Virus genome (UHGV): UHGV-1366990
Direction: 5' to 3' (one strand)
Source: a virus
Length of the DNA: 64,000 bases
Part shown: positions 18,679 to 33,991 of the stretch, one piece after another
Numbering within the stretch: the stretch's first letter is position 1
How the letters are laid out: each line of letters starts with the position of its first letter
Program-made: the position numbers and the translations under genes
Notes under the pieces: model-generated
Databases searched by the model: none
Told to the model about the DNA's origin: nothing
The model's input: only the letters and a program-made list of their open reading frames with translations

Positions 18679-18996
18679 TCCGGAGCCTCACTGGATTGAT
18701 TAAATGTCTCCGTTATTATATTGGGAGTATGTTTATTGAATATAAACACAGGAATGACCAATAAAATAATGACAGTGATTATTAATAGGTAAAAACTACT
18801 TTTCTACAACATCAAGAAACTGTATCCTAACGCAGTGCCCTTCGAGTTGTGAGTGTCAACGAACAACGAGAAGCAGCCTCCATGGCTGTGGAATGGTGCT
18901 GCCCGCATAGGGCGGTGTTACGAGCGAGGGCGTCAGCCCCCTCGCGAGTTATATTCGAATAAATTAAACGCGCGCGAGCGTTTTGATTCCCGTTGG

Positions 18997-19004
18997 CTAA
19001 ATAT
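18997..19004 (+). promoter_or_regulatory. late-promoter-like motif CTAAATAT (T4 TATAAATA analogue) upstream of baseplate gene
   Basis: Motif 40 nt upstream of ATG 19044; same core recurs before other virion genes. Confidence 0.4.
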
Positions 19005-19043
19005 CTTCAACACCATATTCAAACTCAGGTGATGGAGATTATC

Positions 19044-20822
19044 ATGGCCACGCAAACAGTCCCTTCACTCGATGTCAGGGCTTTCGAGTATCTTATCAAG
19101 AAGCGCATGAAAGCTGATCCAACTTTCAAGGATTATGACTTTGAAGGTTCTGGTCTCAGTGCAATCGTGCGTATCTTGGCCTCGGATGCCAACTCTATCG
19201 GGTTTATGCAGAACATGCTGAATGGCGAAAGCCATCTTCACTCTGCTCAACAGCGTTCTAATGTCGGTCTGGCGGCGGGGTTCTTATCTTACACCCCTCA
19301 CAACTACCAGGCAGCGTACCTGTACGCAAACGTCACAGTCACTCCATATGACGCCAGCACGGCTCCAGACACGATTGTAATGGATCGCCGCGCGATGTTC
19401 ATTGGGGTGAAGGATGGCAAATCTTATAACTTCACGGTTGACCAACCTGTGAGCGCCTCTCTTGTAGACGGCTCTTACAAGTTCGAGAACATCAAACTCA
19501 TACAGGGTAACTGGCTGTACAAGTCCTATGATGTGGAAGGCAGCGCGATCTCTACCTATGTGATCCCATCTTCTTCCGTGGACATCGACCATATGGTGGT
19601 ACAGGTACAGGAATCTGAGACATCTGACGTGCGATCTACCTTCTCACGATATGTCAGCCCGTTCGATTTGAGCCAGTATGCGCAACTTTACTTCGTTGAG
19701 CTGGGGTTGGACGGGATGTACACGTTCGAATTCGGTGATGGGTATATCTGTAAGCGAGTAGAAGACGGGAACGTCGTGTACCTCCAGTATCTGGAGACAG
19801 CTGGTGCAGACGGCAATGACATCACTACCTTGTCCTCCGCGTCTTCCATCGGGGGATTCAACCTTGTAGATGTTGAGCTGGTGTCAGAACGTTCTTCCGG
19901 TGGTAAGGACCCAGAGAGCATTGAGGACATCAAGCGCCTTGCTCCGCTGGCTTATCAGGCTGAGGGTGCGGCGGTAGCCGAAGTCGATTATGCTGTGTTG
20001 ACCGAGCGTCTGTTCTCTAACGTCTCCCGCGCCAAAGCATATGGTGGCGACACGCTCTCTCCGCCCGACTCCGGATACGTTTACATTGCTGTGATACCTT
20101 CTGTTGGTGAGGCGCTCTCGGACGCTGAGAAGGCAGATATCGTGGCGACGTTAGACAAGTACAATGTGGGCACGATCACACCCAAGATTGTCGACGCTGA
20201 ACTGACTTATGTTGATGTCACCACCCGCGTGTTCTGGGATCCGACTTCCACGTCCTATACCGAAGAGCAGTTGAAGACAGTCGTGAAGAACGGTGTTGTC
20301 AACTGGGGCTTGGGGAACCTAGAAGGATTCGACGAACTGTTCGATAAAGAGCAGTTACAGTCGGCCATCACCGACATGGACAGATCGATAGTGTCAAACA
20401 TCACTTCTGTGAAGTATAAGCGCCATTTCAAGCCAGACTATGGGGTACTGGACAGCTTCACATTCGATTTTGGGCGCTCGATTGCGTCTGGTTCTGTGCG
20501 TATCAGTGGGTTTAAGCCGCTTCCGGCCGAGGTCGAATTCACTTACTACATACGCGACGTCAGTGGTGTCCTGAATATGTACAAGGTGAGTACAACAGAC
20601 ACGACCAAGGAATATCTGGTACAATCTGTTGGAACGGTTGATTATATGACTGGCGTTGTTGAACTCCAGCGTATCATAGTATCCAACTACAACACTGAGG
20701 GTGTGACAATAATTGTGTCTCCAGACGGTCTTGACCAGAACATTCAGGCCACACAGAATCAGGTGCTCCGCATCGGTGCTGTAACTGTGGAGCCGGAGGT
20801 GCGTTATGTCCAAAGATCTTAA
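19044..20822 (+). CDS. baseplate wedge protein (gp6-like)
   Basis: 592 aa from ATG with GGAG RBS (track start 18993 is TTG); first gene of late module, size and position fit T4 gp6. Confidence 0.6.
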   Translation: MATQTVPSLDVRAFEYLIKKRMKADPTFKDYDFEGSGLSAIVRILASDANSIGFMQNMLNGESHLHSAQQRSNVGLAAGFLSYTPHNYQAAYLYANVTVTPYDASTAPDTIVMDRRAMFIGVKDGKSYNFTVDQPVSASLVDGSYKFENIKLIQGNWLYKSYDVEGSAISTYVIPSSSVDIDHMVVQVQESETSDVRSTFSRYVSPFDLSQYAQLYFVELGLDGMYTFEFGDGYICKRVEDGNVVYLQYLETAGADGNDITTLSSASSIGGFNLVDVELVSERSSGGKDPESIEDIKRLAPLAYQAEGAAVAEVDYAVLTERLFSNVSRAKAYGGDTLSPPDSGYVYIAVIPSVGEALSDAEKADIVATLDKYNVGTITPKIVDAELTYVDVTTRVFWDPTSTSYTEEQLKTVVKNGVVNWGLGNLEGFDELFDKEQLQSAITDMDRSIVSNITSVKYKRHFKPDYGVLDSFTFDFGRSIASGSVRISGFKPLPAEVEFTYYIRDVSGVLNMYKVSTTDTTKEYLVQSVGTVDYMTGVVELQRIIVSNYNTEGVTIIVSPDGLDQNIQATQNQVLRIGAVTVEPEVRYVQRS

Positions 20823-21660
20823 TAACGGACACAATGGGGTGAAATATGAAACCCCATTGTTTTACCAGAATGAATTCCCAGTATTCATCGAGTTTATGGA
20901 TACGTTCTTCAACTGGTTGTATCGCCAGCAGGGATTCACCGAAGAGGAGATCTTGGCGTATCTGGCAGACACTGGTGGTTGGGTGAACCCAAATACGGAT
21001 CAGTCTCCTATTGAGCAGTTGATTGACATCAAGAAGCGCAAGACGCCAGGTGCTGAGGCCAAAGACTTCTTGGAAGACAAGTTCCTGACGCGCACGTTTG
21101 AGAACATGATGGCGCTAGACTTCGAAGATTTGCTGGACGTGGACGGTCGGCCATTAATCTCAATGGAAGACAAGAACGAACGCATCGACGATTGGTATGC
21201 TGATTTTGGATTCCAGAGAACGGTTGATAAGTCCTTCCTAGAGTTCGGGAAGTTTGTGCCAGTTGGTTCGGACAGTTTGGTGACTTCAGACGGAGACACT
21301 CTCTCTGTGTATGTCGAGGGAACTGAACGCCGGACACTGGACCATGTACGCTGGTTGAAGTTACTTAAACACATTTATCGCATTCGCGGGACGAAGAAAG
21401 CGATTGAATTGTTCTTCTGGATTTACTTTGGTTGCCCAGTGAGTGTGTATTATCCCAAGGAAGAAATTGGTGGCCTGGATGACAACTTTGAATGTGACGG
21501 CGCGACAGGAATGCGTGACGATTACTACTATGATGAATTCACGTATGTGATAAGAGTTCCTGGCAACGTATCTGATTTTGAAGGTGTGTTTGATCGCGTC
21601 TTCCGTCAGCATTTCCATCCTGCTGGGTTTACTGTATTCCTAGAAAGTTCAAGGAGTTAA
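20806..21660 (+). CDS. putative baseplate protein
   Basis: 284 aa; GGAGG RBS; overlaps upstream gene, inside baseplate/tail-fibre block. Confidence 0.5.
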   Translation: MSKDLNNGHNGVKYETPLFYQNEFPVFIEFMDTFFNWLYRQQGFTEEEILAYLADTGGWVNPNTDQSPIEQLIDIKKRKTPGAEAKDFLEDKFLTRTFENMMALDFEDLLDVDGRPLISMEDKNERIDDWYADFGFQRTVDKSFLEFGKFVPVGSDSLVTSDGDTLSVYVEGTERRTLDHVRWLKLLKHIYRIRGTKKAIELFFWIYFGCPVSVYYPKEEIGGLDDNFECDGATGMRDDYYYDEFTYVIRVPGNVSDFEGVFDRVFRQHFHPAGFTVFLESSRS

Positions 21661-21662
21661 AA

Positions 21663-22874
21663 ATGGCCGATTTTCTGAGTCGATACACAGGTCAGCAGAT
21701 TGATGCAATCCTTTCTTCTGTTGACGATAAAATAAGCAAGACTGATGTTGTCAACGATTTCTCTGTTGATGATCCGTTGTTCCCTCCGTCAGCTCATTTG
21801 ACATACGAGCTGAAGCGTTCTGTGGATAATATCTACGACACACTGGAAAACAAAGTGATCCGCACCGACGGTGGTGAACAAACGATCAACGGGCGGAAGA
21901 CTTTTGCCGCAGAAATCCGAGCCAATGCTGGTGTCAGTATCCCTACGGGGAAGAAACTTACCATCGCAGATGAGCCAGTTGATTCCACTGATGGCGTCAA
22001 TCTGTCTATGCTGCGCAAGCACGGCGTGAGTGAAGACACTGCCGGGGTTAACTCTGGTCTGAAAATCGAGTTGTTACCTGGCGGCTACAACAAACTCACT
22101 TTCGATGGCACAAATCTGGCCAATTACTCTGGTACTGGTGTGCCAACTACCATGTTACTGGTGAGTGGAACCGACACTGTCAAGTACGACACATCTGCGT
22201 TTGTGACTTCTATCTTCAATGATACGCGTTTCAACGCTTATCTGAAGGTTGTTGATTATGATGCCGATATGTTGGATATCCAGTCTCAGTTCAACACTGT
22301 CAACACCACTCTGGCTGCGAAGGTCAACACGTCGACTTACAACTCCAAGATGTCTAGCCTGGACACCAGTATACTGGATCTGACGAACAACAAAGTGAAC
22401 GTCAGTACGTATAACACGAAGATGGCGGCGTTGGACGGTTCCATCAGCGGCATTCAGAGTGATATCGGCACGATCAATACCACGTTGTCTGGAAAGGTCA
22501 ACACATCGACCTACAACGCCAAAATGACAAGCCTGGACGCCGACATTGCTGCCCGTGTGAAGATCGGGAAGACCAACCCAAGCGGTATCACTGTCTCTGC
22601 TTCTGGGAACTCTGCGTTGCCCGACTTCGATTTGGTGAACCTTTGCCAGGTGTTGATCAGTGCACAATGGGGTACAGGCAACGTCGTGGATACGTACCGC
22701 GTGACGATCACCCGTGACGGGACTATCAAGTCTGAGCTGTTGGTACAGAAGTCCACTTCCGGTACGGTGACATTCGCGGGTTCTGTAGTGTCTTCAAAAC
22801 TTCGTTTGACGATAACAAATGCGAACACGACGACTGCTTGCTCCGTTGACTACAATCTAGTCGCTTCTTTCTAA
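21663..22874 (+). CDS. tail fibre protein with internal tandem repeats
   Basis: 403 aa; three copies of KVNTSTYN.KM.SLD units; AAGGAG RBS. Confidence 0.6.
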   Translation: MADFLSRYTGQQIDAILSSVDDKISKTDVVNDFSVDDPLFPPSAHLTYELKRSVDNIYDTLENKVIRTDGGEQTINGRKTFAAEIRANAGVSIPTGKKLTIADEPVDSTDGVNLSMLRKHGVSEDTAGVNSGLKIELLPGGYNKLTFDGTNLANYSGTGVPTTMLLVSGTDTVKYDTSAFVTSIFNDTRFNAYLKVVDYDADMLDIQSQFNTVNTTLAAKVNTSTYNSKMSSLDTSILDLTNNKVNVSTYNTKMAALDGSISGIQSDIGTINTTLSGKVNTSTYNAKMTSLDADIAARVKIGKTNPSGITVSASGNSALPDFDLVNLCQVLISAQWGTGNVVDTYRVTITRDGTIKSELLVQKSTSGTVTFAGSVVSSKLRLTITNANTTTACSVDYNLVASF

Positions 22875-22882
22875 AGTGAAAA

Positions 22883-22925
22883 CTAAATACCCCTAGATGA
22901 AACGAACACATTTAGGGGTATTTGA
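22883..22925 (+). promoter_or_regulatory. late promoter CTAAATACCCC plus inverted partner GGGGTATTT just before start codon
   Basis: aactaaatacccctag...tttaggggtatttgaaATG; GGGG lies 9 nt before ATG. Confidence 0.45.
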
Positions 22926-22926
22926 A

Positions 22927-25900
22927 ATGGCTAATAAACCAACACAGCCTGTTTTCCCTCTCGGTCTGGCGGCTGAAGAGCAGTCTACTTTGGCTGGTGT
23001 CCTCAACACGGGTACGATTGAGCATGGACCAGATGCTGTCCTGACTTTACCCGAGGGTAATGCCAGCGCAGGACTCCCGTCTTCCGTTCGCTACAATGCC
23101 GACTCCGACGAATTTGAGGGCTTCTATGAAAATGGTGGATGGTTGCCGCTGGGTGGCGGTGGTATCCGCTGGGAAGTCCTTCCGCATGCCTCTACGACAA
23201 CACTCACTGAAGGGCGAGGCTATCTCATTAATAATACCACAGGGGCGTCTACAGTGGTTCTCCCGCTCCCTACGCGCATTGGTGATTCTGTTACTGTCTG
23301 TGACATGTATGGGAAGTTCTCTGTCTATCCACTGACCATTGACCCGAATGGAAAGGCTATGTATGGGAATGTGGAGGCCATGACGATCTCCACAGACAGC
23401 GCGACCGCAACGTTCACCTGGACTGGAGATGCTCGTGGCTGGATTATCACAGCAGGCGTCGGCCTGGGCCAGGGGCGTGTCTACAGCCGAAACATCTATA
23501 CCGATACTCTGGGCTTCCCAACCTCCGAAGTCACCCTGACAACCCAGCCACTTATCGTTGATGTCTATGTTGATGGTAAGCGCCTGGTGGAGTCCAAATA
23601 CTCCCTGAGTGGTTATGAAGTTCGCTTCAGCCCATCTCTTCCGGCTGGTGTTGAATTGCAGGTTGTTCAGTACGTTCCGATCCAATTGGGTCTCGGGTCT
23701 GGCGGGTCTGACAGCGGTATCACTCCTTGGGTCTACAACGGCGGTGCTGCAGTTGGCGGCGAAACCACTATCTCTGTTCCAGACTTGGCGCTGGGTGTTC
23801 CGTTCATCACCATCAACGGATATGCCAACTACCCTGGATTTGCGTACAGCTATGATGCAGGTGCCCACGTCCTCACCTTTGGTACTCCACTGGAAGCAGG
23901 CGACATGGTTGTCCTTATGCTGTCTGGTGAAGTTGCTGGGAATATCCCGGTCAACACCAGCGCAGGCTTCCTGGCGATAGAGGCACTGCGTCGCACCTAT
24001 GCCGAAGCGGGTTACAACCTGGTCGGAGGGAGTTTCGGTCGTGGTGGCACTGTCAACACAGCAACTGATGTTCTGCTCAATGAAGTGGATGGAAAGGCTT
24101 ATTCCTGGGGTGGAACTTTGCCTAAGACTGTGCCAGCTGATAGTACTCCCATCAGTAGTGGCGGGCTTGGAATTAGTGCGTGGGTGGATAGATCTGCTGC
24201 ACCTAATAGCTTTACTCAGACCGGAGCAGGAGCGGTTACAAGACCCGCTCAAGACAAAATGCGTGAAGAGTATAGCGTTCAGGACTTTGGGGCCAAAGTG
24301 AATAGTGGAGTGGATGAGACAGACAATATTAAGAAATGCCTTGCTCATGTAAAAGCGAAAGGCGGGAGAGCTAAAATTAACTTCCAGCCTGGGGAGTATA
24401 TGGTTCGTGGAACGGAGCTAATTGTCGATTTTTCTAATGTCATGTTGGAAGGTTATGGGGCCATACTTAAGCTTGTTGATAGCCCGACGGCGATTCAAGG
24501 CCCTGTGCTCAAGATTGCCCAGTACGGTGATCCAACTGTAAGGGGGACAGTTGAGAACGTCATAGTCAAAGGGTTCACGATTTATGGTAATAAGCTGAAT
24601 CAAATTCAAACCATGAACGCAGGTGGGGATGCGAACAATCCCGGATTTGTGTCTGAGGATGTCGTTAATTTGCATGTAGAGGACGTTATTGTCTATGATT
24701 GTGACGGTTATGGATTCCTCTTTGCTGGTTCAAACCTCCCCCATCGCAAGGGTGCGTACTTCAAGAACTGCTGGGCATTCGGTAACAACGTTGACGGATT
24801 TGATATCAAGGCAGGGTTTAACCATGTCACTCTCGACAGTTGCAGGTCGTGGGGTAACGGCTACGCGCCCATAGTTGCCCTACGCTCCGGAATGGGGTTC
24901 GATACCCGTGGCAAAGACGTTACCTTGATTAACTGCGTAGGTGGGGATGAGGGTAGCAACTATGCTGGCAACTTCCGCGTGCGCGAAAACGCAGAGGCGG
25001 GAATCTCATTCCTGGGGTGCCATAGCTATAACTCGCCTAATGGTACTTACGGCTTTATGTGCATAGGTGGTGGAAATACCAACGTGTCACTGATAGGCTG
25101 TACGTCTTCCAATGACGGAACCTCTATTAAGCATGAGCGAGGACACCTTACAGTAGTAGGGTTCAGGTCATGGAAGCCGAAGCTTCTGAGTATCCTGCAA
25201 TACCCGTCACAGTTTGTGTTGAGCACACTGACAGAAGCAGCTACATTCAGTTCCTATGGCGAATCGGTTACTATTTATCCTAGTGATTATCTCAGCGCTA
25301 CCGTAGGTTCTGAAATCAAGATCCCAACCGATGCTGGGACGATTTACCTCCTGGTTACACAGGCAGTTGCATCTACGCTGGTGTGTACGGTTCTGCGTGG
25401 AAATCTGGGGACGGCTGCGGCAGGAGCGAGTATCACTACTGTATCGACGGGAAGCCTGACGGTACATGGCGGAATATCTTATCAGTCTGCTGGTGATGCT
25501 GTTCAGTTTGCGTCTACCTTACAAACCCTTACTGATAGTTCAATGCCTGCAACTTTTAACGGGTTCGTTATAGAGGCACCAACCCGTTACGGAGTGAATT
25601 TTCAGGGTGGCGATGTGAGTTTTTATGGTGGCGCAATTCGAAACTGTGGCAAAGGGTCATCCTCCCCTGGATTTTTCGTCGGCAATGCAGCTACTGCTGA
25701 ATCGACATTCCGGTTGGACAGTGTATTCATGGGTAATGACGACAAATCTTTCACGCAGTCAGCTGGCATTCAGTTCCAGTCAACAAGCCTGGCGAAAGGG
25801 AGCGTTAGAGCGTGTAAATTCGCCGATAATGCCAACTCGCCAGTCATTGGCTCGCCATCTTCTGGTGTGCGGTTTGCAGACAATATCGGCTACACCAACG

Positions 25901-26166
25901 AGGGCACATTCTCTACAACAATTGATGTGACAACTGTTGGGGTGAAAACATTCTCAATTCCGCATGGGCTAAGCAAAGCACCTTCTGGTAAAGATGTGCA
26001 ACTGACCATCCAGCGGTCTGGGGCGGCGAATGACTACGTTCTCTCCACTCCGATGATTACCGGAGCAAGTTCTACAATTATTTCTGGGAGGGTGTCCGTA
26101 CTCACGGCTAGCGCAACCGCAGGTGAAGTCGCAACAGTAAACGCATTCATCAGCGCCAACCCATAG
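22927..26166 (+). CDS. tailspike protein 1 (beta-helix depolymerase-like)
   Basis: 1080 aa; Gly/Asn/Thr-rich repeats typical of right-handed beta-helix; internal YSWGGTLPKTV..STPISSGG module shared with tailspikes 2 and 4. Confidence 0.8.
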   Translation: MANKPTQPVFPLGLAAEEQSTLAGVLNTGTIEHGPDAVLTLPEGNASAGLPSSVRYNADSDEFEGFYENGGWLPLGGGGIRWEVLPHASTTTLTEGRGYLINNTTGASTVVLPLPTRIGDSVTVCDMYGKFSVYPLTIDPNGKAMYGNVEAMTISTDSATATFTWTGDARGWIITAGVGLGQGRVYSRNIYTDTLGFPTSEVTLTTQPLIVDVYVDGKRLVESKYSLSGYEVRFSPSLPAGVELQVVQYVPIQLGLGSGGSDSGITPWVYNGGAAVGGETTISVPDLALGVPFITINGYANYPGFAYSYDAGAHVLTFGTPLEAGDMVVLMLSGEVAGNIPVNTSAGFLAIEALRRTYAEAGYNLVGGSFGRGGTVNTATDVLLNEVDGKAYSWGGTLPKTVPADSTPISSGGLGISAWVDRSAAPNSFTQTGAGAVTRPAQDKMREEYSVQDFGAKVNSGVDETDNIKKCLAHVKAKGGRAKINFQPGEYMVRGTELIVDFSNVMLEGYGAILKLVDSPTAIQGPVLKIAQYGDPTVRGTVENVIVKGFTIYGNKLNQIQTMNAGGDANNPGFVSEDVVNLHVEDVIVYDCDGYGFLFAGSNLPHRKGAYFKNCWAFGNNVDGFDIKAGFNHVTLDSCRSWGNGYAPIVALRSGMGFDTRGKDVTLINCVGGDEGSNYAGNFRVRENAEAGISFLGCHSYNSPNGTYGFMCIGGGNTNVSLIGCTSSNDGTSIKHERGHLTVVGFRSWKPKLLSILQYPSQFVLSTLTEAATFSSYGESVTIYPSDYLSATVGSEIKIPTDAGTIYLLVTQAVASTLVCTVLRGNLGTAAAGASITTVSTGSLTVHGGISYQSAGDAVQFASTLQTLTDSSMPATFNGFVIEAPTRYGVNFQGGDVSFYGGAIRNCGKGSSSPGFFVGNAATAESTFRLDSVFMGNDDKSFTQSAGIQFQSTSLAKGSVRACKFADNANSPVIGSPSSGVRFADNIGYTNEGTFSTTIDVTTVGVKTFSIPHGLSKAPSGKDVQLTIQRSGAANDYVLSTPMITGASSTIISGRVSVLTASATAGEVATVNAFISANP

Positions 26167-26346
26167 GGCGCAGGAGGAAGTGGAACGGGATCGAACCAGC
26201 GCATGAAAAGCTGGTAGCTGAGTCATATGTTATTGGTGAGAAATATGGCATCCGGTATGAAGAAGCGTTGGTGATGGAAGCCGCTCTTCAGAGACGCAAT
26301 TACCAACGCCTTCTGAATCGTATTGAAGCGCTGGAGAATAAGTAAC

Positions 26347-26375
26347 AAACACCCCCATCTACGGATGGGGTTATT
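26347..26375 (+). terminator. intrinsic terminator after tailspike 1 (cccccatctacggatgggg + T-rich)
   Basis: 7-bp GC stem followed by ttattact. Confidence 0.45.
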
Positions 26376-26398
26376 ACTAGAATAATCAGAGGTAAATC

Positions 26399-28480
26399 AT
26401 GAGAACTCAATTTGATCAGGGTGGCGGTTCTACCGGGATCCTCACCAACAAAATGGCGATTGCTCGCCAGTTCGGCGTCAAACAGTCTGAAGTCATCTAT
26501 TTCTCTGCTGGAGTTGATTTATATGGGTACAAGGTCATCTACGACAAAACCACGCAGAGAGCTTACTCCTTACCTTCTGACATTACTGCTGGTACTACTG
26601 CCGTCAGTCTTAGTGTGGCTGCTGTACTCGTCCATTCAAAAGGCTCTGTAGACCTGGGGGCATTGGCCGTAACCCGTGGGGAATTTGTGACAGTTCCTGG
26701 TTCGTTTGCTCTGGGTGCGACGATCAATGTGAAGAACGAACTCCTCGAACGCAACGGTGTTCTCTATTATTGGGGAGGAGCGTTACCGAAGGTTGTTGCT
26801 CCTGGTTCCACTCCGGAAAGTGCGGGTGGTGTCGGGTCGGGCAAGTGGGTGGGTGTCGGGGATGCATCATTAAGGCAGCAGTTAGAGAGTGTCGCCATTT
26901 ATGACAAAGATTACCCAACTATTGCTGAGGCTTTCGGTCGTGCATATTACCTAGGGGCTGCTCTGGTTCTTACTTCGTCTAGAACCATCCGCATTCCAAG
27001 TGATGCACCTAGCCTGCAGTCGGTAGTCGATATCTGCGCAAGAATTAAATCTGACGTTTATCTTACTATTATTCTTGATGCTGGTTTTATCTTTACCGAG
27101 GAAACTTTAGTTGAAAAGCGTGATTGCTCATGGATGACTATTCAGTCAGATGATTCAGTGGTTAAGGTGTCTCCATCATTCTCTGGCATTAACTTAATTC
27201 ATGTTGTTAATTCGTTTGGACCCATCTGGGATATTCTTGCTGATATGGCGGGATCATCAGCAGGTAATGGCATTTATGTAAGACGAAACTCCGACATTGA
27301 AGTGCGCCCGGGAAAGGGAGTTATAAATGCCGTTAACACAGCAGTGGTATCTCTTCCATGCGGTATAGCTATTGTGGAAAGCTCCCGAGGGCATATTCCT
27401 TCCTCAAATTTTTCAGGAAATTACCGAAACCTTTGGGTATCGAAGTCCTCTCAGTGTAATGCGGAGGGGGGTAATTTTGATAATGCAACTGGGGACTTTG
27501 CAACCTATATTGTGCGAAACTCGCTGTGTCATCTCTCTTTGGCTACGGTAAACAACGCCGCACATAATGCTGTCTATGCAAACAACAGTCGCATTACCTT
27601 CCTGGAAGGGGAGGCAATTAATGCTGATACTGCACTTTATGCTGAATTTGCAGGTGTAATTTATACAAGGCCGCGTGATGGCAACATAACCAATATCTCA
27701 GGCTCTCGAATCAATGCAATTTCCGCCTCTAATGGTGGTGTTATTATTGCTGAGGGAATGACAATCTCTACAGCTTCTGGGTTTGGAATTACTGCCCGCG
27801 ACGGTGGGAAGGTCAGTGCGGTAGGGACGTCTGTTTTAGCTACCGGCACGGCGCTGAATGTTTATAACGAAGGGGAGGTAAATATAGCGGGGGATGGTAA
27901 CGTGATTTCCTCTTCTTCTACCGGGGTTAATGTAGTCAAGGCATACCAGGGAGGGAGAATTAACCTTGACGGAGCCGTAGTGACAGGTGGAACTAATGGC
28001 TTGCTCGCCGAGTCTGGTGGAACAATCCACGCGCGAGGTGTTAATATGTCTGGGCAGGCAGCAAACACAATACAAGCAACTGGTGGATACGTTAACGCTG
28101 ATAATTCCGTGCTTTCAAAATCTTCCTTTAATGTCGATGTTGTTTATGCTCGTCGCGGAGGCATTATTGATGCCAACTTTTCAACAATCACCGGAGGGAG
28201 AATCGGGGTGCATGCAGACGTTGGTGGAAGAGTATGTGTAAATAATTCCACTATTAATGGTGCATCAACTGGTGGTGTGCGGGCTACTGGCGGTGAGGTA
28301 TACGCGCAGTCAGCAATAATTCAAAACAACACCGGTAAGGATCTGACAGTTCTATCAGGGGGAGCACTACGCGCAGGCGGTGTAACGACAACTAATTCAT
28401 CTCCAGCCGGAACACCGAACCCCTCAGATGCAAATGCTGCTTTTAATACATTTGCTTCAGTGGGTTTTATTTTTGCATAA
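26399..28480 (+). CDS. tailspike protein 2
   Basis: 693 aa; N-terminal ~150 aa homologous to tailspike 4 N-terminus; beta-helix-like repeats; GAGG RBS. Confidence 0.8.
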   Translation: MRTQFDQGGGSTGILTNKMAIARQFGVKQSEVIYFSAGVDLYGYKVIYDKTTQRAYSLPSDITAGTTAVSLSVAAVLVHSKGSVDLGALAVTRGEFVTVPGSFALGATINVKNELLERNGVLYYWGGALPKVVAPGSTPESAGGVGSGKWVGVGDASLRQQLESVAIYDKDYPTIAEAFGRAYYLGAALVLTSSRTIRIPSDAPSLQSVVDICARIKSDVYLTIILDAGFIFTEETLVEKRDCSWMTIQSDDSVVKVSPSFSGINLIHVVNSFGPIWDILADMAGSSAGNGIYVRRNSDIEVRPGKGVINAVNTAVVSLPCGIAIVESSRGHIPSSNFSGNYRNLWVSKSSQCNAEGGNFDNATGDFATYIVRNSLCHLSLATVNNAAHNAVYANNSRITFLEGEAINADTALYAEFAGVIYTRPRDGNITNISGSRINAISASNGGVIIAEGMTISTASGFGITARDGGKVSAVGTSVLATGTALNVYNEGEVNIAGDGNVISSSSTGVNVVKAYQGGRINLDGAVVTGGTNGLLAESGGTIHARGVNMSGQAANTIQATGGYVNADNSVLSKSSFNVDVVYARRGGIIDANFSTITGGRIGVHADVGGRVCVNNSTINGASTGGVRATGGEVYAQSAIIQNNTGKDLTVLSGGALRAGGVTTTNSSPAGTPNPSDANAAFNTFASVGFIFA

Positions 28481-28494
28481 ATGGAATATTGAAT

Positions 28495-28788
28495 ATGAAA
28501 GATTTATCCCCTTTATCTCATGCAGTTTCAGTTATTACATTGCAGTGTTTATTCGGCATGCTTGCGGGGAAATGGCTTGAAGGAGGCGTAATGGGTTGCA
28601 TGTGGTTTATCGCCCGTGAGCACACCCAGGCTGAGTATCGCTGGCTCGCTCAGTTCGGCGCAGGGAAGCGCGCCAATATGCCGTGGTGGGGAGGGTTCTC
28701 CTGGCGCGCATGGAATGTGCCCAGTCTGCTCGACTGGCTTGTGCCGGTGCTGGCGTGCACTGTCGTTTATTTCGTAGCCACACTTTAA
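28495..28788 (+). CDS. small 3-TM membrane protein, paralog A (conserved AREHTQAEYRW..MPWxGGF..LLDWLVPV)
   Basis: 97 aa from ATG (track start 28489 is TTG); about 60% identical to 31525..31818. Confidence 0.55.
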   Translation: MKDLSPLSHAVSVITLQCLFGMLAGKWLEGGVMGCMWFIAREHTQAEYRWLAQFGAGKRANMPWWGGFSWRAWNVPSLLDWLVPVLACTVVYFVATL

Positions 28789-29040
28789 CTCCTGGCGGGA
28801 TTATTGATAGGTATCACCGCATTGATCTGCACTGCCTTTAAAACTACTGTGTATAAAACAGTAAAAGGAGTGCAGATCATGCCCCGCCGTCACGACATTC
28901 ACGCCGCATTTGTGGCCGCAATACAGCTAAACACAAAGGGCTGCCGATGCTTACGCACAGAAGACTTTATCCGCGAACTGGCAAAGGTCCACTGGTATTT
29001 CAAATAAATGACGAACCTTGATAGGAACAGAAGCCCTTCA

Positions 29041-29080
29041 CTAAATACCCCATATTGGCAAATCCTTTATGGGGTATTTT
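29041..29080 (+). promoter_or_regulatory. late promoter CTAAATACCCC with inverted partner GGGGTATTT
   Basis: cactaaataccccatattggcaaatcctttatggggtattttcatATG. Confidence 0.45.
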
Positions 29081-29083
29081 CAT

Positions 29084-31513
29084 ATGTCCAGACCAGTCGA
29101 AAGCATCTTTGGAGCCGTGGTCACCGCTCCTCACCAGATTCCATACACATACACAGCCGTAGGTGGCGAAACGTCCATCTCTCTCCCCGTATTCCCTGTC
29201 ACAGGCCTGGTCACTATCGGTGGCGGCGTACAAGTCCCACTCGACAACTATGAGATAGAAGGGAACGTCCTTCATCTTGGTGGACCTCTTGAACCGGGCG
29301 ACGTTGTGTACTGTCTGTTTGACAAGGTACTGTCTCCAGAAGGTCAGAACTCTACCACTCGCATCTACAAATTCAAATCAGTGGGTGGAGAAACTTCATT
29401 CACTCCAGACTTCACTTCCTATGGCGTGCAGTCGCTGTACATTGATGGGAAATACCAGACGCCGATTGATGACTACACCTACAACAAAGAGACTGGCGTT
29501 GTCAGCCTGAAGACCGCAATTGTCGGGGCTGGGAAATGGGTTGTGGCTGAACTGTATGTACAACAGAATTACCCGGCGCTGGCAGCTCCTGATGGTGCCG
29601 ATATGATCGGGGTTCCAACAACAGAAACTTCTTTGGGGGAATTGCTTTCATCTGATGATATGGCCATCAAATATGGTTATGTCAACCCAACAATCAGTGA
29701 AAGGCTTGGGCGTGAAGGGGCGAAGGTTGTTTTGGTCGGCGACAGTCTGAGCAGTTTCTTCAACATAGATTCTGTGAACACAGCGTCTATCTTTGAGTCT
29801 TACCTGCGCCGCAAGATCAGAGAATTCAATGGTACGGCGAAGTTCTACAACAGAGCCATCGGTGGCAAGCGTTACTATGACTTGGGTAGAAATGAACCGC
29901 CTCTTGATACTCTGACGAGCGGATACCCTTGGTATACAGACACGTCCAAGCGTTGGATGACTTACTTGGACGATCTTAAACCAGATGTGATCTTCTTAGC
30001 CTTTGGTATGAACGATGGTCCGGGATGGGACGTAGGTAACTTTCAGCAAGATAACTTCTTCAAGATGATGGAAGAACTTAAGTCCATCAGTTCAAGCCCT
30101 GAGTTGGTGTTCTGTACCAATATTCTTCCTTCTACAACACATGTTGATACCGCAGCAGAAGACCAGCAGCAGGGGCGTGATGCGATGGCTGGCTGGACAA
30201 GAAGTTTTGCCAGAAAGGCGGGATATAGCTTCCTTGATCTTCATAGACGTTTCAAATGCTTACGTGATGGTGTAGACCCGTGCATGGCTAGTTATGCCCG
30301 TAAAACCATTCAGAAAGTGGTGTCGCTTCCGTATGTACACACCGCCCAGTGTGATATGTATTCGGCTCGGGTAATTTTGATCGATCCAGCCGTCGCGACC
30401 ACAGGTATTAGATTCCAGTTGTCGAAGTATTCTAACAACTTCATGACCTTGAAATACGATACCACGACATCTCGCTGGATAACGACCGCATATACAGCTT
30501 CTTCGTCTTCCGTTGGCGTCGCTGACCAGAGTTCTATGCCTGGCCCAGCCCCGGCTGAGGGAACAGAGATATACTTCACCATGAACGGTGACGTTGTCGT
30601 AATAACCATCGGCATCAACACATATCCGGTGTTCAGCCGTAATATTGTGCGCTTCGGTGGTAAATTCTTCCCTGAAATCGGCGGAACTGGTGATATTCGG
30701 ATTGACATGATTGAGGGTACGCCCATCCCTGTTAAATCAGAGCTGACGGATTATGATTGCTACAACACCGACGGCGATGGCGGGAATGGCATCAACCACC
30801 CAACAGCCAAAGCGAGTTCCCGAATTTATACTCGCGTTGTTGACGACTGGTTCAGTATGCTTGCTGGGTCTGTGAGTTCCAGAAAGCAGGTGCTGGACAT
30901 TGACTTTGTCAACGGCACTGTTGTGGTGAGAAACCCGTATAGCCCAGAACTATCTTGTGAAGCCAAAATCAGCGCCGCCCTGACTTTTATCAACGGATCA
31001 CTCGCATACCAACGCGACGCTCAGGGACGTGTCATTGGAGCGGTATTTGGGGCTACGAACAGAGCATATGTTGACCAGGCGTTCTTCAATGCTTATGCGG
31101 GGAATTACAGCCAGCTCACATTTGAAGTAGAGTTCGTTGCCCCGGGCGCCCAGGCATACATCTGCACGTTCGGGGAAAACACCACAAGTGACCGAATCAT
31201 GGCTCAGGTCACAAGTGATTTACGCCCAAGAATCACGGCAGCCGTGGCATCACAAGCCAGTGACCTTTTCGGTTCGGCTTCGTTCCCATTTGTTGCTGGC
31301 CGGAAATACGCTTTGAAATTCTCTTTAGATTGTGAGAATTCGGTCGCGCGAATGTGGGGGCAGGACAACTCCGCGCGAGGTAACATCAACGTTACCCCTA
31401 TAACCGCCATATCTCCGGCGACATTATCCAAGCTGAAGTTGGGTTATGCGTCAACTGGAACATTTGGTGTTGATGTCGTGGTTTCAAGAATCAGAGTCTG
31501 GTTCTCCAACTGA
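29084..31513 (+). CDS. tailspike protein 3 with SGNH/GDSL-hydrolase-like motifs (putative glycan esterase)
   Basis: 810 aa; VVLVGDSLSSFFN (GDSL block I) and FLAFGMNDG (GxND block III) in central region. Confidence 0.8.
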   Translation: MSRPVESIFGAVVTAPHQIPYTYTAVGGETSISLPVFPVTGLVTIGGGVQVPLDNYEIEGNVLHLGGPLEPGDVVYCLFDKVLSPEGQNSTTRIYKFKSVGGETSFTPDFTSYGVQSLYIDGKYQTPIDDYTYNKETGVVSLKTAIVGAGKWVVAELYVQQNYPALAAPDGADMIGVPTTETSLGELLSSDDMAIKYGYVNPTISERLGREGAKVVLVGDSLSSFFNIDSVNTASIFESYLRRKIREFNGTAKFYNRAIGGKRYYDLGRNEPPLDTLTSGYPWYTDTSKRWMTYLDDLKPDVIFLAFGMNDGPGWDVGNFQQDNFFKMMEELKSISSSPELVFCTNILPSTTHVDTAAEDQQQGRDAMAGWTRSFARKAGYSFLDLHRRFKCLRDGVDPCMASYARKTIQKVVSLPYVHTAQCDMYSARVILIDPAVATTGIRFQLSKYSNNFMTLKYDTTTSRWITTAYTASSSSVGVADQSSMPGPAPAEGTEIYFTMNGDVVVITIGINTYPVFSRNIVRFGGKFFPEIGGTGDIRIDMIEGTPIPVKSELTDYDCYNTDGDGGNGINHPTAKASSRIYTRVVDDWFSMLAGSVSSRKQVLDIDFVNGTVVVRNPYSPELSCEAKISAALTFINGSLAYQRDAQGRVIGAVFGATNRAYVDQAFFNAYAGNYSQLTFEVEFVAPGAQAYICTFGENTTSDRIMAQVTSDLRPRITAAVASQASDLFGSASFPFVAGRKYALKFSLDCENSVARMWGQDNSARGNINVTPITAISPATLSKLKLGYASTGTFGVDVVVSRIRVWFSN

Positions 31514-31524
31514 CGGAGTCTTTA

Positions 31525-31818
31525 ATGAACATTGACATATCTCCTATTCTTCACGCCCTGGTCGCTACCGCCCTGCAAGCAATTGCGGGGTTACTCTTGG
31601 GGGACTGGGTAATCGGAGCAGTAATGGGCTGCACGTTCTTCGCCGCCCGTGAGCACACTCAGGCTGAATACAGATGGATCTCCCAGTCCGGTAAGGGTAA
31701 GCGATCCAACATGCCTTGGTATGGCGGGTTTGACTACCGGGCGTGGGATATCCCGAGCCTCCTGGACTGGTTGGTTCCTGTAGTTGGATGTACAGCGTTG
31801 TATTTCATAGCAGCATAA
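31525..31818 (+). CDS. small 3-TM membrane protein, paralog B
   Basis: 97 aa; GGAG RBS; same conserved core as 28495..28788. Confidence 0.55.
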   Translation: MNIDISPILHALVATALQAIAGLLLGDWVIGAVMGCTFFAAREHTQAEYRWISQSGKGKRSNMPWYGGFDYRAWDIPSLLDWLVPVVGCTALYFIAA

Positions 31819-31855
31819 GGCATTTGCCTGATTTATAAGAATATCAGAGGTGATT

Positions 31856-33541
31856 ATGAAACAGTTATTCAATCAAGGCGGGCAGGGTTCTACGGGAATC
31901 ATGTCCAACAAACAGGCGATTGCTCGGCGCTTCGGTGTCAAGCAATCAGAGGTCGTATACTTCTCCAGCGGTCAGGCGCTGACCGGGTTTAAGGTTATCT
32001 ACGATAAGCCATCTCAACGTGCCTATGCGCTGCCCTCTAACCTGGGGTCTGTAACTGCCACCACTTTGGTGGACGGCCTGCTCACGCACTCTGGAGGCAC
32101 TGTTGACCTGGGTGCACTGGCGGTACTGCGAGAAGAATTCGTTACTCTGGTGGAGAACTTCACGTCTGGGTTCACTATCCGTGTTAAGAATGAACTGGTG
32201 AGCGACGGTCAGTCTCTGTACCGCTGGGATGGGGCGTTACCAAAGACAGTGAATGCGGGTGGTTCGGTTTCTGCGGATGGGGTTGGCAAGGGTAAATGGG
32301 TTGAAACGAGCACAAGTAATCTCAGTTATTTTCCTAAACCGATAACTTGGGCCGGGTTTGCTGGAGGCGCAGCCTGGGATGGAGTAACTAATGACAGCAT
32401 CCCCTATCAGGCCGCCGCGCAATCTGGGCGAAAGTTTTTAATGCCTTATGGTGTGGGGAACATACCGGATTATTCTGTAGGCTTGTATTCTCCCAACTTC
32501 TCCGTTCTGGGTGAGGCTGAGCAGTTGGGTTCGTTACAAAATCCAGTTGACGATTTTCGACCGTCACACACAGACACAAAATATTCAAAGTATCACGAAA
32601 CGGATCCAGCATCTAATCGGTGGGATTCCTGTTCTATACATACAATTGTTAAATGTCCTCAGGGCGATGCTAATCCAAAAGGAAATGCGGCAGCTGTAAC
32701 TGGGTATGTAAGAGCAATTAGCAGCGAGGGTGGTGATCATGTTGGCGTACATGGTAGAGCAGAAGGTGATACCAGTTACGACTTCGGTACTGGGATGGGG
32801 TTGTGGGGTGGATGGCTGTCAGCCGTTTACAGACCTAATACAGGCTCAGCTGGGAAGCTAATAAAGTCTATTATTGGTTGTGAGATTGACGTGCAAAATG
32901 ATGGACCACATGCACAAAACCCCAATCCGGCTGGTGTTGGTGAGCTGCGTGGTCTCGCGGTAGGGAATACTGGCACCGGCCATCTTAATCAAGGCGTTGA
33001 TGTATTCTCTAGCAATAGCGGTGCGCGTGGAAGGTGGTGGATGGGCGTTCACGTGCGTGCTAATTCCATTGTAGGAAGACATCTGGTATCATCAGAGGAG
33101 GAAGTTGGTAATGCAATGGTGATTGCTGGAGCGGCATCGTCAGGGACGCGTTACGGCGGATTAAAATTTAGTAAATATCCCTACACAGCGGTAGGACAAG
33201 GAGGTCATCTTTCTTATGGAATTGATTTCAGGGAGGCAACAATTCGCTTACAAAACGCGATTGTAATGGGTCCTCAGCACCGGATTACATGGGATCCTGA
33301 CACTGCAAAGGGTGTTGCGGTAGAGACAGAGGGAGGGGATGTAATTACTTTCCGGGGATATAATATAGCCATAAATAACTCCAAAGTTTTGGGGGCTAGA
33401 CAAACTGGTATCTTTAATATGTCGGGGATAGCAGATGGAACCTCATACAATACAGAAACCGTTACACTTGTAAATCTTGCCAGATACCTAAAGAAGGTAA
33501 CTGATGCATTAATATTTCATGGCCTTATTGGCCCAACTTGA
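31856..33541 (+). CDS. tailspike protein 4
   Basis: 562 aa; N-terminus MKQLFNQGGQGSTGIMSNKQAIARRFGVKQSEV parallels tailspike 2; AGAGG RBS. Confidence 0.75.
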   Translation: MKQLFNQGGQGSTGIMSNKQAIARRFGVKQSEVVYFSSGQALTGFKVIYDKPSQRAYALPSNLGSVTATTLVDGLLTHSGGTVDLGALAVLREEFVTLVENFTSGFTIRVKNELVSDGQSLYRWDGALPKTVNAGGSVSADGVGKGKWVETSTSNLSYFPKPITWAGFAGGAAWDGVTNDSIPYQAAAQSGRKFLMPYGVGNIPDYSVGLYSPNFSVLGEAEQLGSLQNPVDDFRPSHTDTKYSKYHETDPASNRWDSCSIHTIVKCPQGDANPKGNAAAVTGYVRAISSEGGDHVGVHGRAEGDTSYDFGTGMGLWGGWLSAVYRPNTGSAGKLIKSIIGCEIDVQNDGPHAQNPNPAGVGELRGLAVGNTGTGHLNQGVDVFSSNSGARGRWWMGVHVRANSIVGRHLVSSEEEVGNAMVIAGAASSGTRYGGLKFSKYPYTAVGQGGHLSYGIDFREATIRLQNAIVMGPQHRITWDPDTAKGVAVETEGGDVITFRGYNIAINNSKVLGARQTGIFNMSGIADGTSYNTETVTLVNLARYLKKVTDALIFHGLIGPT

Positions 33542-33970: not shown

Positions 33971-33991
33971 TATCTGCCCACCAGTCGTATA

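Follow-up and report, generated by a model that had tools for sequence, protein, structure and literature searches.

A tailspike gene cluster of probable Agtrevirus type with exchanged receptor-binding bodies and a linked family of small genes

What kind of adsorption apparatus is encoded by four large genes standing one after another where a phage would carry its receptor-binding proteins, and where did their receptor-binding parts come from? The question is raised by the virus genome UHGV-1366990, of which a stretch of 64,000 nucleotides (nt), referred to here as the window, contains four large and intact open reading frames (ORFs), consecutive and all on the + strand, between positions 22927 and 33541. 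An earlier note, made from the letters alone, had placed four such ORFs here and proposed that they encode a branched multi-spike apparatus with swappable receptor-binding domains, as in the Ackermannviridae, in a phage with a T4-like core; the ORFs are indeed there, and the family comparison holds while the T4-like core does not. Here, we describe the region as the tailspike protein (TSP) gene cluster of an Ackermannviridae phage of Agtrevirus type, probably infecting E. coli, a cluster in which the genes run TSP4-TSP3-TSP2-TSP1 and whose products would form a branched complex like that of phage CBA120, a reading to which we assign a probability of about 0.9. The naming used in the field runs in the reverse order of the genes, so that ORF1, ORF2, ORF3 and ORF4 of the earlier note correspond to TSP4, TSP3, TSP2 and TSP1.

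22927..26166, + strand: TSP4, 1079 amino acids (aa), the predicted baseplate-anchored scaffold spike, with an N-terminus matching the CBA120 TSP4-N structures
26399..28480, + strand: TSP3, 693 aa, with a D1-D2 head at aa 1-158 (26399-26872) and a predicted beta-helix body (26891-28477)
29084..31513, + strand: TSP2, 809 aa, with XD2-XD3 (29084-29566), a predicted GDSL/SGNH esterase (29735-30259) and a C-terminal region of ~415 aa
31856..33541, + strand: TSP1, 561 aa (563 from 31850), with a D1-D2 head (31856-32323) and a body (32327-33538)

The start of TSP2 can be placed at 29069 (814 aa) or at 29084 (809 aa), the latter agreeing with the TSP2 homologues; residue numbers up to 814 follow the former.

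The family to which the phage belongs can be read from the DNA on either side of the locus. Positions 1-22000 and 34000-58000 of the window show 96-98% nt identity over 90-97% to the E. coli phages vB_EcoM-ZQ1 (ZQ1), LHE287, AV101, YX22 and RPN242, with AV101 at 95-97% on either side of the locus and Shigella phage Ag3 at ~91% in the flanks. The records of AV101 and ZQ1 are classified as Ackermannviridae, Aglimvirinae, and the relatives listed at 85-98% nt identity are all Ackermannviridae genomes or E. coli, Salmonella and Enterobacter phages of the same type. This comparison, which covers 64 kb out of a genome of ~150-160 kb, groups the flanks with the Aglimvirinae and not with another family. 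The gene order is also that of AV101 and CBA120, namely the gp6-like wedge gene, the gene for a 284-aa wedge protein, that for a protein of ~400 aa, the four TSP genes and the VriC-like gene, and the flanking genes are located as follows.

18993-20822: gp6-like wedge gene, in the upstream flank of the cluster
20806-21660: gene for the 284-aa wedge protein, in the upstream flank
21663-22874, + strand: gene for a 403-aa protein (phrog_3838), directly upstream of TSP4
from 33863: gene for a VriC-like protein of 1669 aa, in the downstream flank

The 403-aa protein is 99% identical to its AV101 counterpart and 63% identical to CBA120 orf215. Position within the cluster, by the order of CBA120 orf213-210, and reciprocal blastp against TSP1-4 of CBA120 and AV101 concordantly assign the four genes as TSP4, TSP3, TSP2 and TSP1. 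Inside the locus the backbone-level identity to AV101 and ZQ1 ends at ~23606-23663 and resumes at 33984, and no phage record spans 80% of it.

For a branched complex to form, the spikes need modules that dock on one another, and these are best seen in TSP4, which is built of the following parts, the boundaries of its XD domains being borrowed from the CBA120 constructs N181, N253 and N335.

22927..23166, + strand: anchor domain (AD), aa 1-80, ending in a GGGG linker
23167..23931, + strand: XD1-XD2-XD3, ~aa 81-335, predicted gp10-like branching and docking modules, with a match to 7REJ
23959..24201, + strand: D2 head domain (Tail_spike_N, PF18668, E 1.8e-14, aa 366-421)
24217..26163, + strand: receptor-binding body, a probable right-handed beta-helix depolymerase
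26353..26370, + strand: terminator-like hairpin in the gap between TSP4 and TSP3, from a consensus scan only

Residues 1-334 of TSP4 match the CBA120 TSP4-N structures 7REJ and 7RFO at E 7e-135, with an identity of 62.6% to CBA120 TSP4 and 71% to AV101 TSP4, and the GGGG linker at aa 76-79 stands at the same place as Gly76-79 of CBA120 (PMC8825819). Taken by domain, the identity to AV101 is 100% for AD, 75% for XD1, 68% for XD2 and 40% for XD3. A D1 head domain is present in the TSP4 of CBA120 and AV101; here XD3 runs nearly straight into D2 (23932-24201, aa 336-425). The second branching protein would be TSP2, of which residues 1-162 match the CBA120 TSP2 structure 6W4Q at E 9e-65, the N-terminus being 67-70% identical to TSP2 of CBA120 and AV101 (67% over 162 aa for CBA120), and which passes from XD3 directly into its body without a D1. 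The two proteins are related in this part, as residues 267-328 of ORF1 match residues 25-80 of ORF3 (40%, E 1e-5), an XD-domain similarity that the earlier note had missed.

The two remaining spikes, TSP3 and TSP1, carry heads of another type. The head of TSP3 matches 4OJ5 (CBA120 TSP1; E 1.5e-66), 5W6F (CBA120 TSP3; E 1.6e-62) and 4QNL (G7C gp63.1; E 6e-58), and that of TSP1 matches 4QNL (E 2.5e-49) and 4OJ5 (E 4e-48), the matches of both heads to these three structures ranging from E 1e-44 to 1e-66. The TSP3 head is 73% identical to CBA120 TSP1, 64% to AV101 TSP3 (a 162-aa head) and 58% to CBA120 TSP3, and the TSP1 head is 58% identical to AV101 TSP1. In a pairwise alignment, the first 158 aa of TSP3 and TSP1 are 57% identical (blastp E 6e-47), which bears out the shared N-terminal module that had been proposed for the second and fourth spikes. 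An internal copy of this module had also been claimed for the first spike: residues 345-420 of ORF1 do align with residues 80-151 of ORF2 (43%, E 3e-11), although the copy comprises only the D2 half. Likewise, the motif put forward for the module survives in its first part, YxWxGxLPKxV, which is found at residues 392, 123 and 124 of ORF1, ORF2 and ORF4, while its STPxSxGG half is degenerate in ORF4. The Pfam family Tail_spike_N (PF18668) is matched above its cut-off by all three (ORF1 366-421, ORF2 91-155 and ORF4 94-154; E 2e-14 to 1e-18). Branching would thus be provided by the gp10-like XD2 and XD3 of TSP4 and TSP2, with the shared heads of TSP1 and TSP3 as probable docking ends.

How such modules fit together is known from CBA120, where TSP4 and TSP2 are joined through their XD2 domains, and the head of TSP1 sits on XD3 of TSP4 and that of TSP3 on XD3 of TSP2, the XD domains sharing the fold of the T4 baseplate protein gp10 (PMC8825819, PMC11721090). 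By homology to CBA120, each TSP would be a trimer, and TSP4 would be plugged into the baseplate through its N-terminal AD. TSP4 and TSP2 would then associate by way of XD2, TSP1 would dock with its D1-D2 head on XD3 of TSP4 and, once the TSP4:TSP2 pair had formed, the head of TSP3 would dock on XD3 of TSP2, the predicted outcome being a four-branched complex at every corner of the baseplate. Every sequence feature needed for such a complex is present, and we infer the assembly itself from them. The branches would bear different polysaccharide-directed bodies, with TSP4 and TSP3 as putative beta-helix depolymerases and TSP2 as a GDSL/SGNH esterase that would deacetylate, not cut, an O-antigen or capsule receptor, like G7C gp63.1; as the body differs from branch to branch, each branch would open a different serotype to infection.

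The receptor-binding bodies themselves are more diverse than the four beta-helices that had been suggested, as TSP4 and TSP3 are consistent with this fold while TSP2 is a predicted GDSL/SGNH esterase and TSP1 has a body without an assignable fold. The body of TSP4 has sub-threshold Pfam matches only, which go to three beta-helix families (Beta_helix, Pel9A-like and Pect-lyase). It is 99% identical at the aa level to a TSP4 from a metagenome (P0132) and 83-86% identical to side tailspikes of 779-814 aa from E. coli prophages (P0133-P0135), which bear precomputed PF13229 and PF22842 matches, a link graded as faint; there is no match to it in 50,697 phage records. From these relationships, a right-handed beta-helix depolymerase is probable. 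A search of 1.84 billion representative proteins gave 197 distant relatives of the TSP3 body, which, with PF13229 (Beta_helix) matched by 27 of 40 aligned sequences, is assigned to the beta-helices by family; among the phage records its sole match, at 32%, is to an Alcaligenes phage. Single-sequence searches of the Protein Data Bank (PDB) with the bodies of TSP4, TSP3 and TSP2 gave marginal matches only, no meaningful match came out of relaxed Pfam scans with the bodies of TSP1 and TSP3 and the C-terminus of TSP2, and hydrophobic autocorrelation was uninformative as a test for the beta-helix.

For TSP2 the enzymatic class is predicted from Pfam matches, with PF13472 at 48.8 bits against a cut-off of 32.9 (E 1.6e-12) and PF00657 at 25.6 against 23.6, and with the esterase blocks I, II and III represented by GDSL at aa 224, GGKR at aa 265 and GMNDG at aa 313. 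No assignable family was found for its C-terminal 415 aa. From residue 171 to residue 814, TSP2 is 96.9% identical to the product of gene 262 of Phapecoctavirus anhysbys (its residues 48-691) and 52% identical to a Kayfunavirus protein, whereas this type of esterase is absent from all other Ackermannviridae records searched, and against Vi01-type phages the body gave no match at E 1e-5. Esterase spikes that mediate adsorption are nevertheless documented, namely G7C gp63.1 (4QNL; Prokhorov 2017) and the acetyl-esterase spike of Vi01, itself one of the Ackermannviridae (Pickard 2010), according to the passages of PMC11721090 and PMC6336734 that deal with them. The body of TSP1 has only 11 homologues among 5.8 billion proteins; its best match among the phage records is at 35% to Phapecoctavirus 'tail spike' proteins, there is no Pfam match, a profile search against PDB sequences was empty at E 10, and hhalign of its family against that of TSP3 gave a probability of 0.1%. 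The last ~50 aa of TSP1 (33389-33538) are conserved as NSKVLGxRxTGIFxMTGTADGTSxNTETVTLxxLARYxKKVTDALIxHGLIGPT even in relatives that are 33-35% identical, and may be a trimerisation or chaperone-like module.

The exchange of bodies can be seen in related loci in which part of the cluster is the same and part is different. One of them is the metagenome contig that contains P0132 (L005; ENA ERZ27275920 k141_111955, 157,634 bp), which is 90% identical at the nt level over 20935-29610 and 95% over 31525-32370. It has in common TSP4, TSP3, a small ORF, the spacer after it and the N-terminus of TSP2, and then a second small ORF and the head of TSP1, and differs in the bodies of TSP2 (586 aa) and TSP1 (534 aa); its VriC-like gene is only 75% identical at the nt level, which indicates a different backbone. 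In anhysbys (MN850648, 8848-11445), gene 262 is followed by gene 263, a stump of 42 aa which corresponds to the first 41 codons of the small gene that follows TSP2 here (95%), and gene 264, which encodes 102 aa of a head of the TSP1/TSP3 type (67% to TSP3). As these vestiges of a small ORF and a head have no evident role in anhysbys, they point to its cassette having been captured from an Ackermannviridae donor. Temperate phages are involved as well: nt 24336-26306, comprising the TSP4 body and 140 nt past its stop (26167-26306), are 80.5% identical to an E. coli lambdoid prophage (L016), and the side tailspike that this prophage encodes right behind gpJ is P0134, which is 84% identical to the TSP4 body.

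The upstream junctions lie at the ends of the docking or XD modules, and those downstream fall within, or at, the conserved sequence that follows the gene. The placement of the former fits the recombination model of PMC8432352, in which a GTTAVSL motif is discussed; this motif is found at aa 65 of TSP3. The bodies would accordingly be exchanged as cassettes, with temperate E. coli phages and the unrelated Phapecoctavirus among the probable donors and recipients. By comparison with the phage records, three of the four receptor-binding heads have no close counterpart, and their combination appears to be new.

A number of observations weigh against the reading as the cluster of a CBA120-like branched complex, or against details of it. 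XD3 of TSP4 has an identity of only 40% to its counterparts in CBA120 and AV101; D1 is missing from TSP4, which on alignment shows a deletion of ~60 aa relative to CBA120 TSP4; the two free heads are both basic, with an isoelectric point (pI) of 9.1 for TSP3 and 10.2 for TSP1 (D1 at 26399-26608 and 31856-32065), so that it is not secure which head docks where; for the block V histidine of TSP2 there are two possible sites, DLH (aa 390) and INHP (aa 575), neither confidently placed, and the Pfam alignment ends at 155/178; the structure of G7C gp63.1 (4QNL), its catalytic domain included, has no TSP2 match even at E 10; and AlphaFold2 of full-length TSP1, from an 11-sequence alignment, yielded a mean predicted local distance difference test score (pLDDT) of 32 and no usable fold. 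The charges of the heads are what would lead to a rewired or incomplete complex, in which TSP3 and TSP1, both with basic heads of the TSP1 type, would be rivals for a single docking site, XD3 of TSP4, or one of the two would be left out, giving fewer than four branches or a mixed population. Elsewhere, the TSP1 head of CBA120 has a pI of 9.1 and the TSP3 heads of CBA120 and AV101 have 5.1 and 6.1, the TSP3 head here is nearer to CBA120 TSP1 than to CBA120 TSP3, and XD3 of TSP2 is less acidic than that of CBA120 (pI 6.3 vs 4.6), which together with the low conservation of TSP4 XD3 would favour such rewiring. However, pI is a crude proxy for a docking surface, the four genes are all intact, the TSP4-TSP3 pair is retained at 90% nt identity in the independent contig L005 and, within the genus, it is AV101 TSP3 to which the TSP3 head is closest, so we regard a rewired complex as unlikely. 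We are slightly more sceptical that the ORF3 esterase, ORF4 or both are accessory virion enzymes or non-enzymatic fibres that use the docking modules of TSPs and are not receptor-recognising spikes. The absence of a beta-helix from ORF3, its unassigned C-terminal region and the few homologues of the ORF4 body, with neither Pfam nor PDB match, could be taken in this sense; set against them are the documented adsorption-mediating esterase spikes of G7C and Vi01 and the fact that the same bodies form the ends of tail fibres or spikes in Phapecoctavirus, Kayfunavirus and N4-like Pectobacterium phages.

Two further explanations carry far less weight. The prophage-like and Phapecoctavirus-like segments might be assembly chimeras and not the result of recombination, as the identity breaks at 29610, 31525, 31648 and ~28580 are sharp, but the reading frames are intact through all junctions, the composition is even over the locus (GC 0.48-0.52), the junctions fall at domain borders, as modular exchange predicts, and the independent contig of 157.6 kb shows the same arrangement of TSP3, small ORF, spacer and TSP2 N-terminus, which makes chimerism very improbable. 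Names and domains of T4 type, such as the gp6-like wedge here and the gp13/gp15 neck and gp43 polymerase of relatives, could suggest a T4-like (Straboviridae) phage in which tailspikes have replaced the long tail fibres, the form in which the locus had been described in the earlier note. The close-relative records listed for the flanks, though, are of Ackermannviridae type and include no Straboviridae, and the N-termini of TSP4 and TSP2 correspond, according to the literature, to gp10 and not to the long tail fibres (gp34-37). The phage is a member of the Ackermannviridae, not the Straboviridae; both the T4-like core and the replaced fibre region are loose descriptions, and we give this explanation almost no credence. 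The reading as an Agtrevirus-type cluster for a branched complex is the one followed below.

Set beside the known systems, the locus shares its frame with them and differs in what the frame carries. The Kuttervirus phage CBA120 (orf210-213; 7REJ, 6W4Q, 4OJ5, 5W6F and 5W6H) has the same gene order and flanking genes, and is alike in AD-XD1-XD2-XD3 of TSP4, in XD2-XD3 of TSP2 and in the D1-D2 heads of TSP1 and TSP3 (57-73%). In contrast, all four of its receptor-binding bodies are unrelated to those described here, its TSP4 has a D1 while this TSP4 has none, its TSP2 has a D1 head and a beta-helix where this one lacks the D1 head and has the predicted esterase, and only its TSP1 head is basic whereas here both free heads are. 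Between the TSP genes here there are, in addition, a truncated ORF and two genes for predicted small membrane proteins, and none are annotated in CBA120. The Agtrevirus phage AV101, whose four TSPs recognise four E. coli O-antigens (PMC10791037), has the same four-TSP layout, an identical (100%) TSP4 anchor domain and the 403-aa protein at 99%, but no TSP body in common, its identity collapsing after ~23660 and coming back at 33984. G7C gp63.1, which has gp66 as its partner, and the Vi01 spike resemble TSP2 in that an esterase of SGNH/GDSL type forms the body of a spike carried by a branched adaptor; in TSP2, unlike G7C gp63.1, the esterase sits on an XD2-XD3 scaffold, not on a D1-D2 head, and the catalytic regions have no detectable similarity. 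Anhysbys belongs to another family (Stephanstirmvirinae), has another N-terminal adaptor of 47 aa, and has both the small ORF and the head truncated. As for T4 gp10, the literature, on which this correspondence is based, assigns it the same fold and the same role, the docking of trimeric fibres, as XD1-XD3 of TSP4 and XD2-XD3 of TSP2.

The architecture is thus textbook for the Ackermannviridae and introduces no new principle; the departures from the known kind are a TSP4 without D1, an esterase on a TSP2 scaffold, two basic heads and an accessory gene family. With its new combination of bodies, the phage should reach serotypes beyond those of the characterised Agtrevirus phages. Its junctions are clean natural examples of sites at which a body can be swapped while the complex is left intact, which makes them useful to phage engineers, and its exchange partners, temperate E. 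coli and Klebsiella prophages and Phapecoctavirus, document that genes move between phages of virulent and of temperate lifestyle.

The accessory family just mentioned consists of small genes that directly follow two of the spikes, with a further short ORF in the spacer behind the first of them.

28495..28788, + strand: s99 (phrog_1443), 97 aa with the ATG at 28495 as start (99 aa if the TTG at 28489 is used), directly after TSP3
28879..29007, + strand: ORF of 42 aa, matching the first 41 of the 79 profile positions of phrog_3893 at E 3e-15, with a good AAAGGAG ribosome-binding site
31525..31818, + strand: s97 (phrog_1443), 97 aa, with a GGAG ribosome-binding site, directly after TSP2

The products of s99 and s97, two predicted small membrane proteins, are paralogous, with 62% identity in protein (E 4.5e-49) and 71% in DNA and many third-position changes, and match the phrog_1443 profile at E 2e-37 and E 2e-41 over positions 1-94 of 97. 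For s97, 255 homologues were found, and the family has a nearly invariant loop, AREHTQAEYRW...R..MPW.GG. The AlphaFold2 model of s97 (pLDDT 79) has three helices, at 6-25, 28-55 and 76-96, for which Foldseek against PDB and BFVD gave no neighbours beyond the anhysbys fragment and single helices of a generic kind; the small ORFs have no match in Pfam, NCBIfam or PADLOC, the profile search against PDB was empty, and the literature on a small membrane protein linked to tailspikes offered nothing specific.

A phrog_1443 gene stands directly 3' of a tailspike or side-fibre gene in the P22-like phage Gally (in the order tailspike, ORF, integrase), in Uetakevirus phiv142-3 and in phage 21, and the same placement is seen in E. 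coli and Klebsiella prophages and in two other Ackermannviridae-like contigs. Among enterobacterial phages it follows tailspikes in at least four unrelated lineages, namely Lederbergvirus, Uetakevirus, lambdoid siphophages and Ackermannviridae, with a vestige in Phapecoctavirus; distant homologues in Aeromonas phages are not adjacent to tail genes. Among the 60 phage-record matches listed for phrog_1443 there is no Ackermannviridae genome, and in AV101 and CBA120 no phrog_1443 gene is annotated in the locus. The DNA around s99 is close to that of prophages, the 3' 200 nt of the gene being 90-100% identical to prophage copies and the 220 nt beyond 83-100%, and the spacer (28789-29068) is 83-100% identical to DNA of an E. 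coli lambdoid prophage (L006). The 42-aa ORF, near-identical to the first 38 aa of a 79-aa ORF in L006, is a truncated prophage copy, and s97 has 95% nt identity to the second small ORF of L005. A palindrome upstream of the 42-aa ORF, TACTGTGTATAAAACAGTA, was considered as a LexA box and rejected, the spacing between CTGT and ACAG being 7 nt and not 8.

The safest reading of s99 and s97 is as moron-type genes of temperate-phage origin that were carried into a virulent phage with the spike bodies. More tentatively, and with doubts that outweigh our confidence, phrog_1443 could be an unrecognised tailspike-linked accessory family, whose members either influence superinfection or the pathway of the polysaccharide receptor, a role proposed because in temperate phages the gene occupies the classical position of lysogenic conversion, or have a core that serves as a homology arm. 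The core that encodes the invariant REHTQAEYRW may in the latter case be the downstream arm for the exchange of cassettes between virulent and temperate phages. In any case, a gene for a small membrane protein that moves together with tailspike genes gives a testable clue to an accessory function yet to be characterised.

Some observations on related loci and on the neighbouring gene may be added. ZQ1 (MW650886, 14-5131), the closest relative in the backbone, apparently has two spike genes only (1040 and 631 aa) in the interval from the gene of the 403-aa protein to the end of the record, which means that the number of TSPs varies between near-identical backbones. An Ackermannviridae-like genome of 160,376 bp is found inside a bacterial assembly of Salmonella enterica (ABBGAK010000009.1, GCA_019193935.1), and the TSP locus there comprises no more than two full spikes (845 and 807 aa), with a phrog_1443 gene between them and a head fragment of 159 aa. 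The 403-aa protein upstream of TSP4 contains repeated segments of KVNTSTYNxKMxxLD type, suggesting a coiled-coil or fibrous protein.

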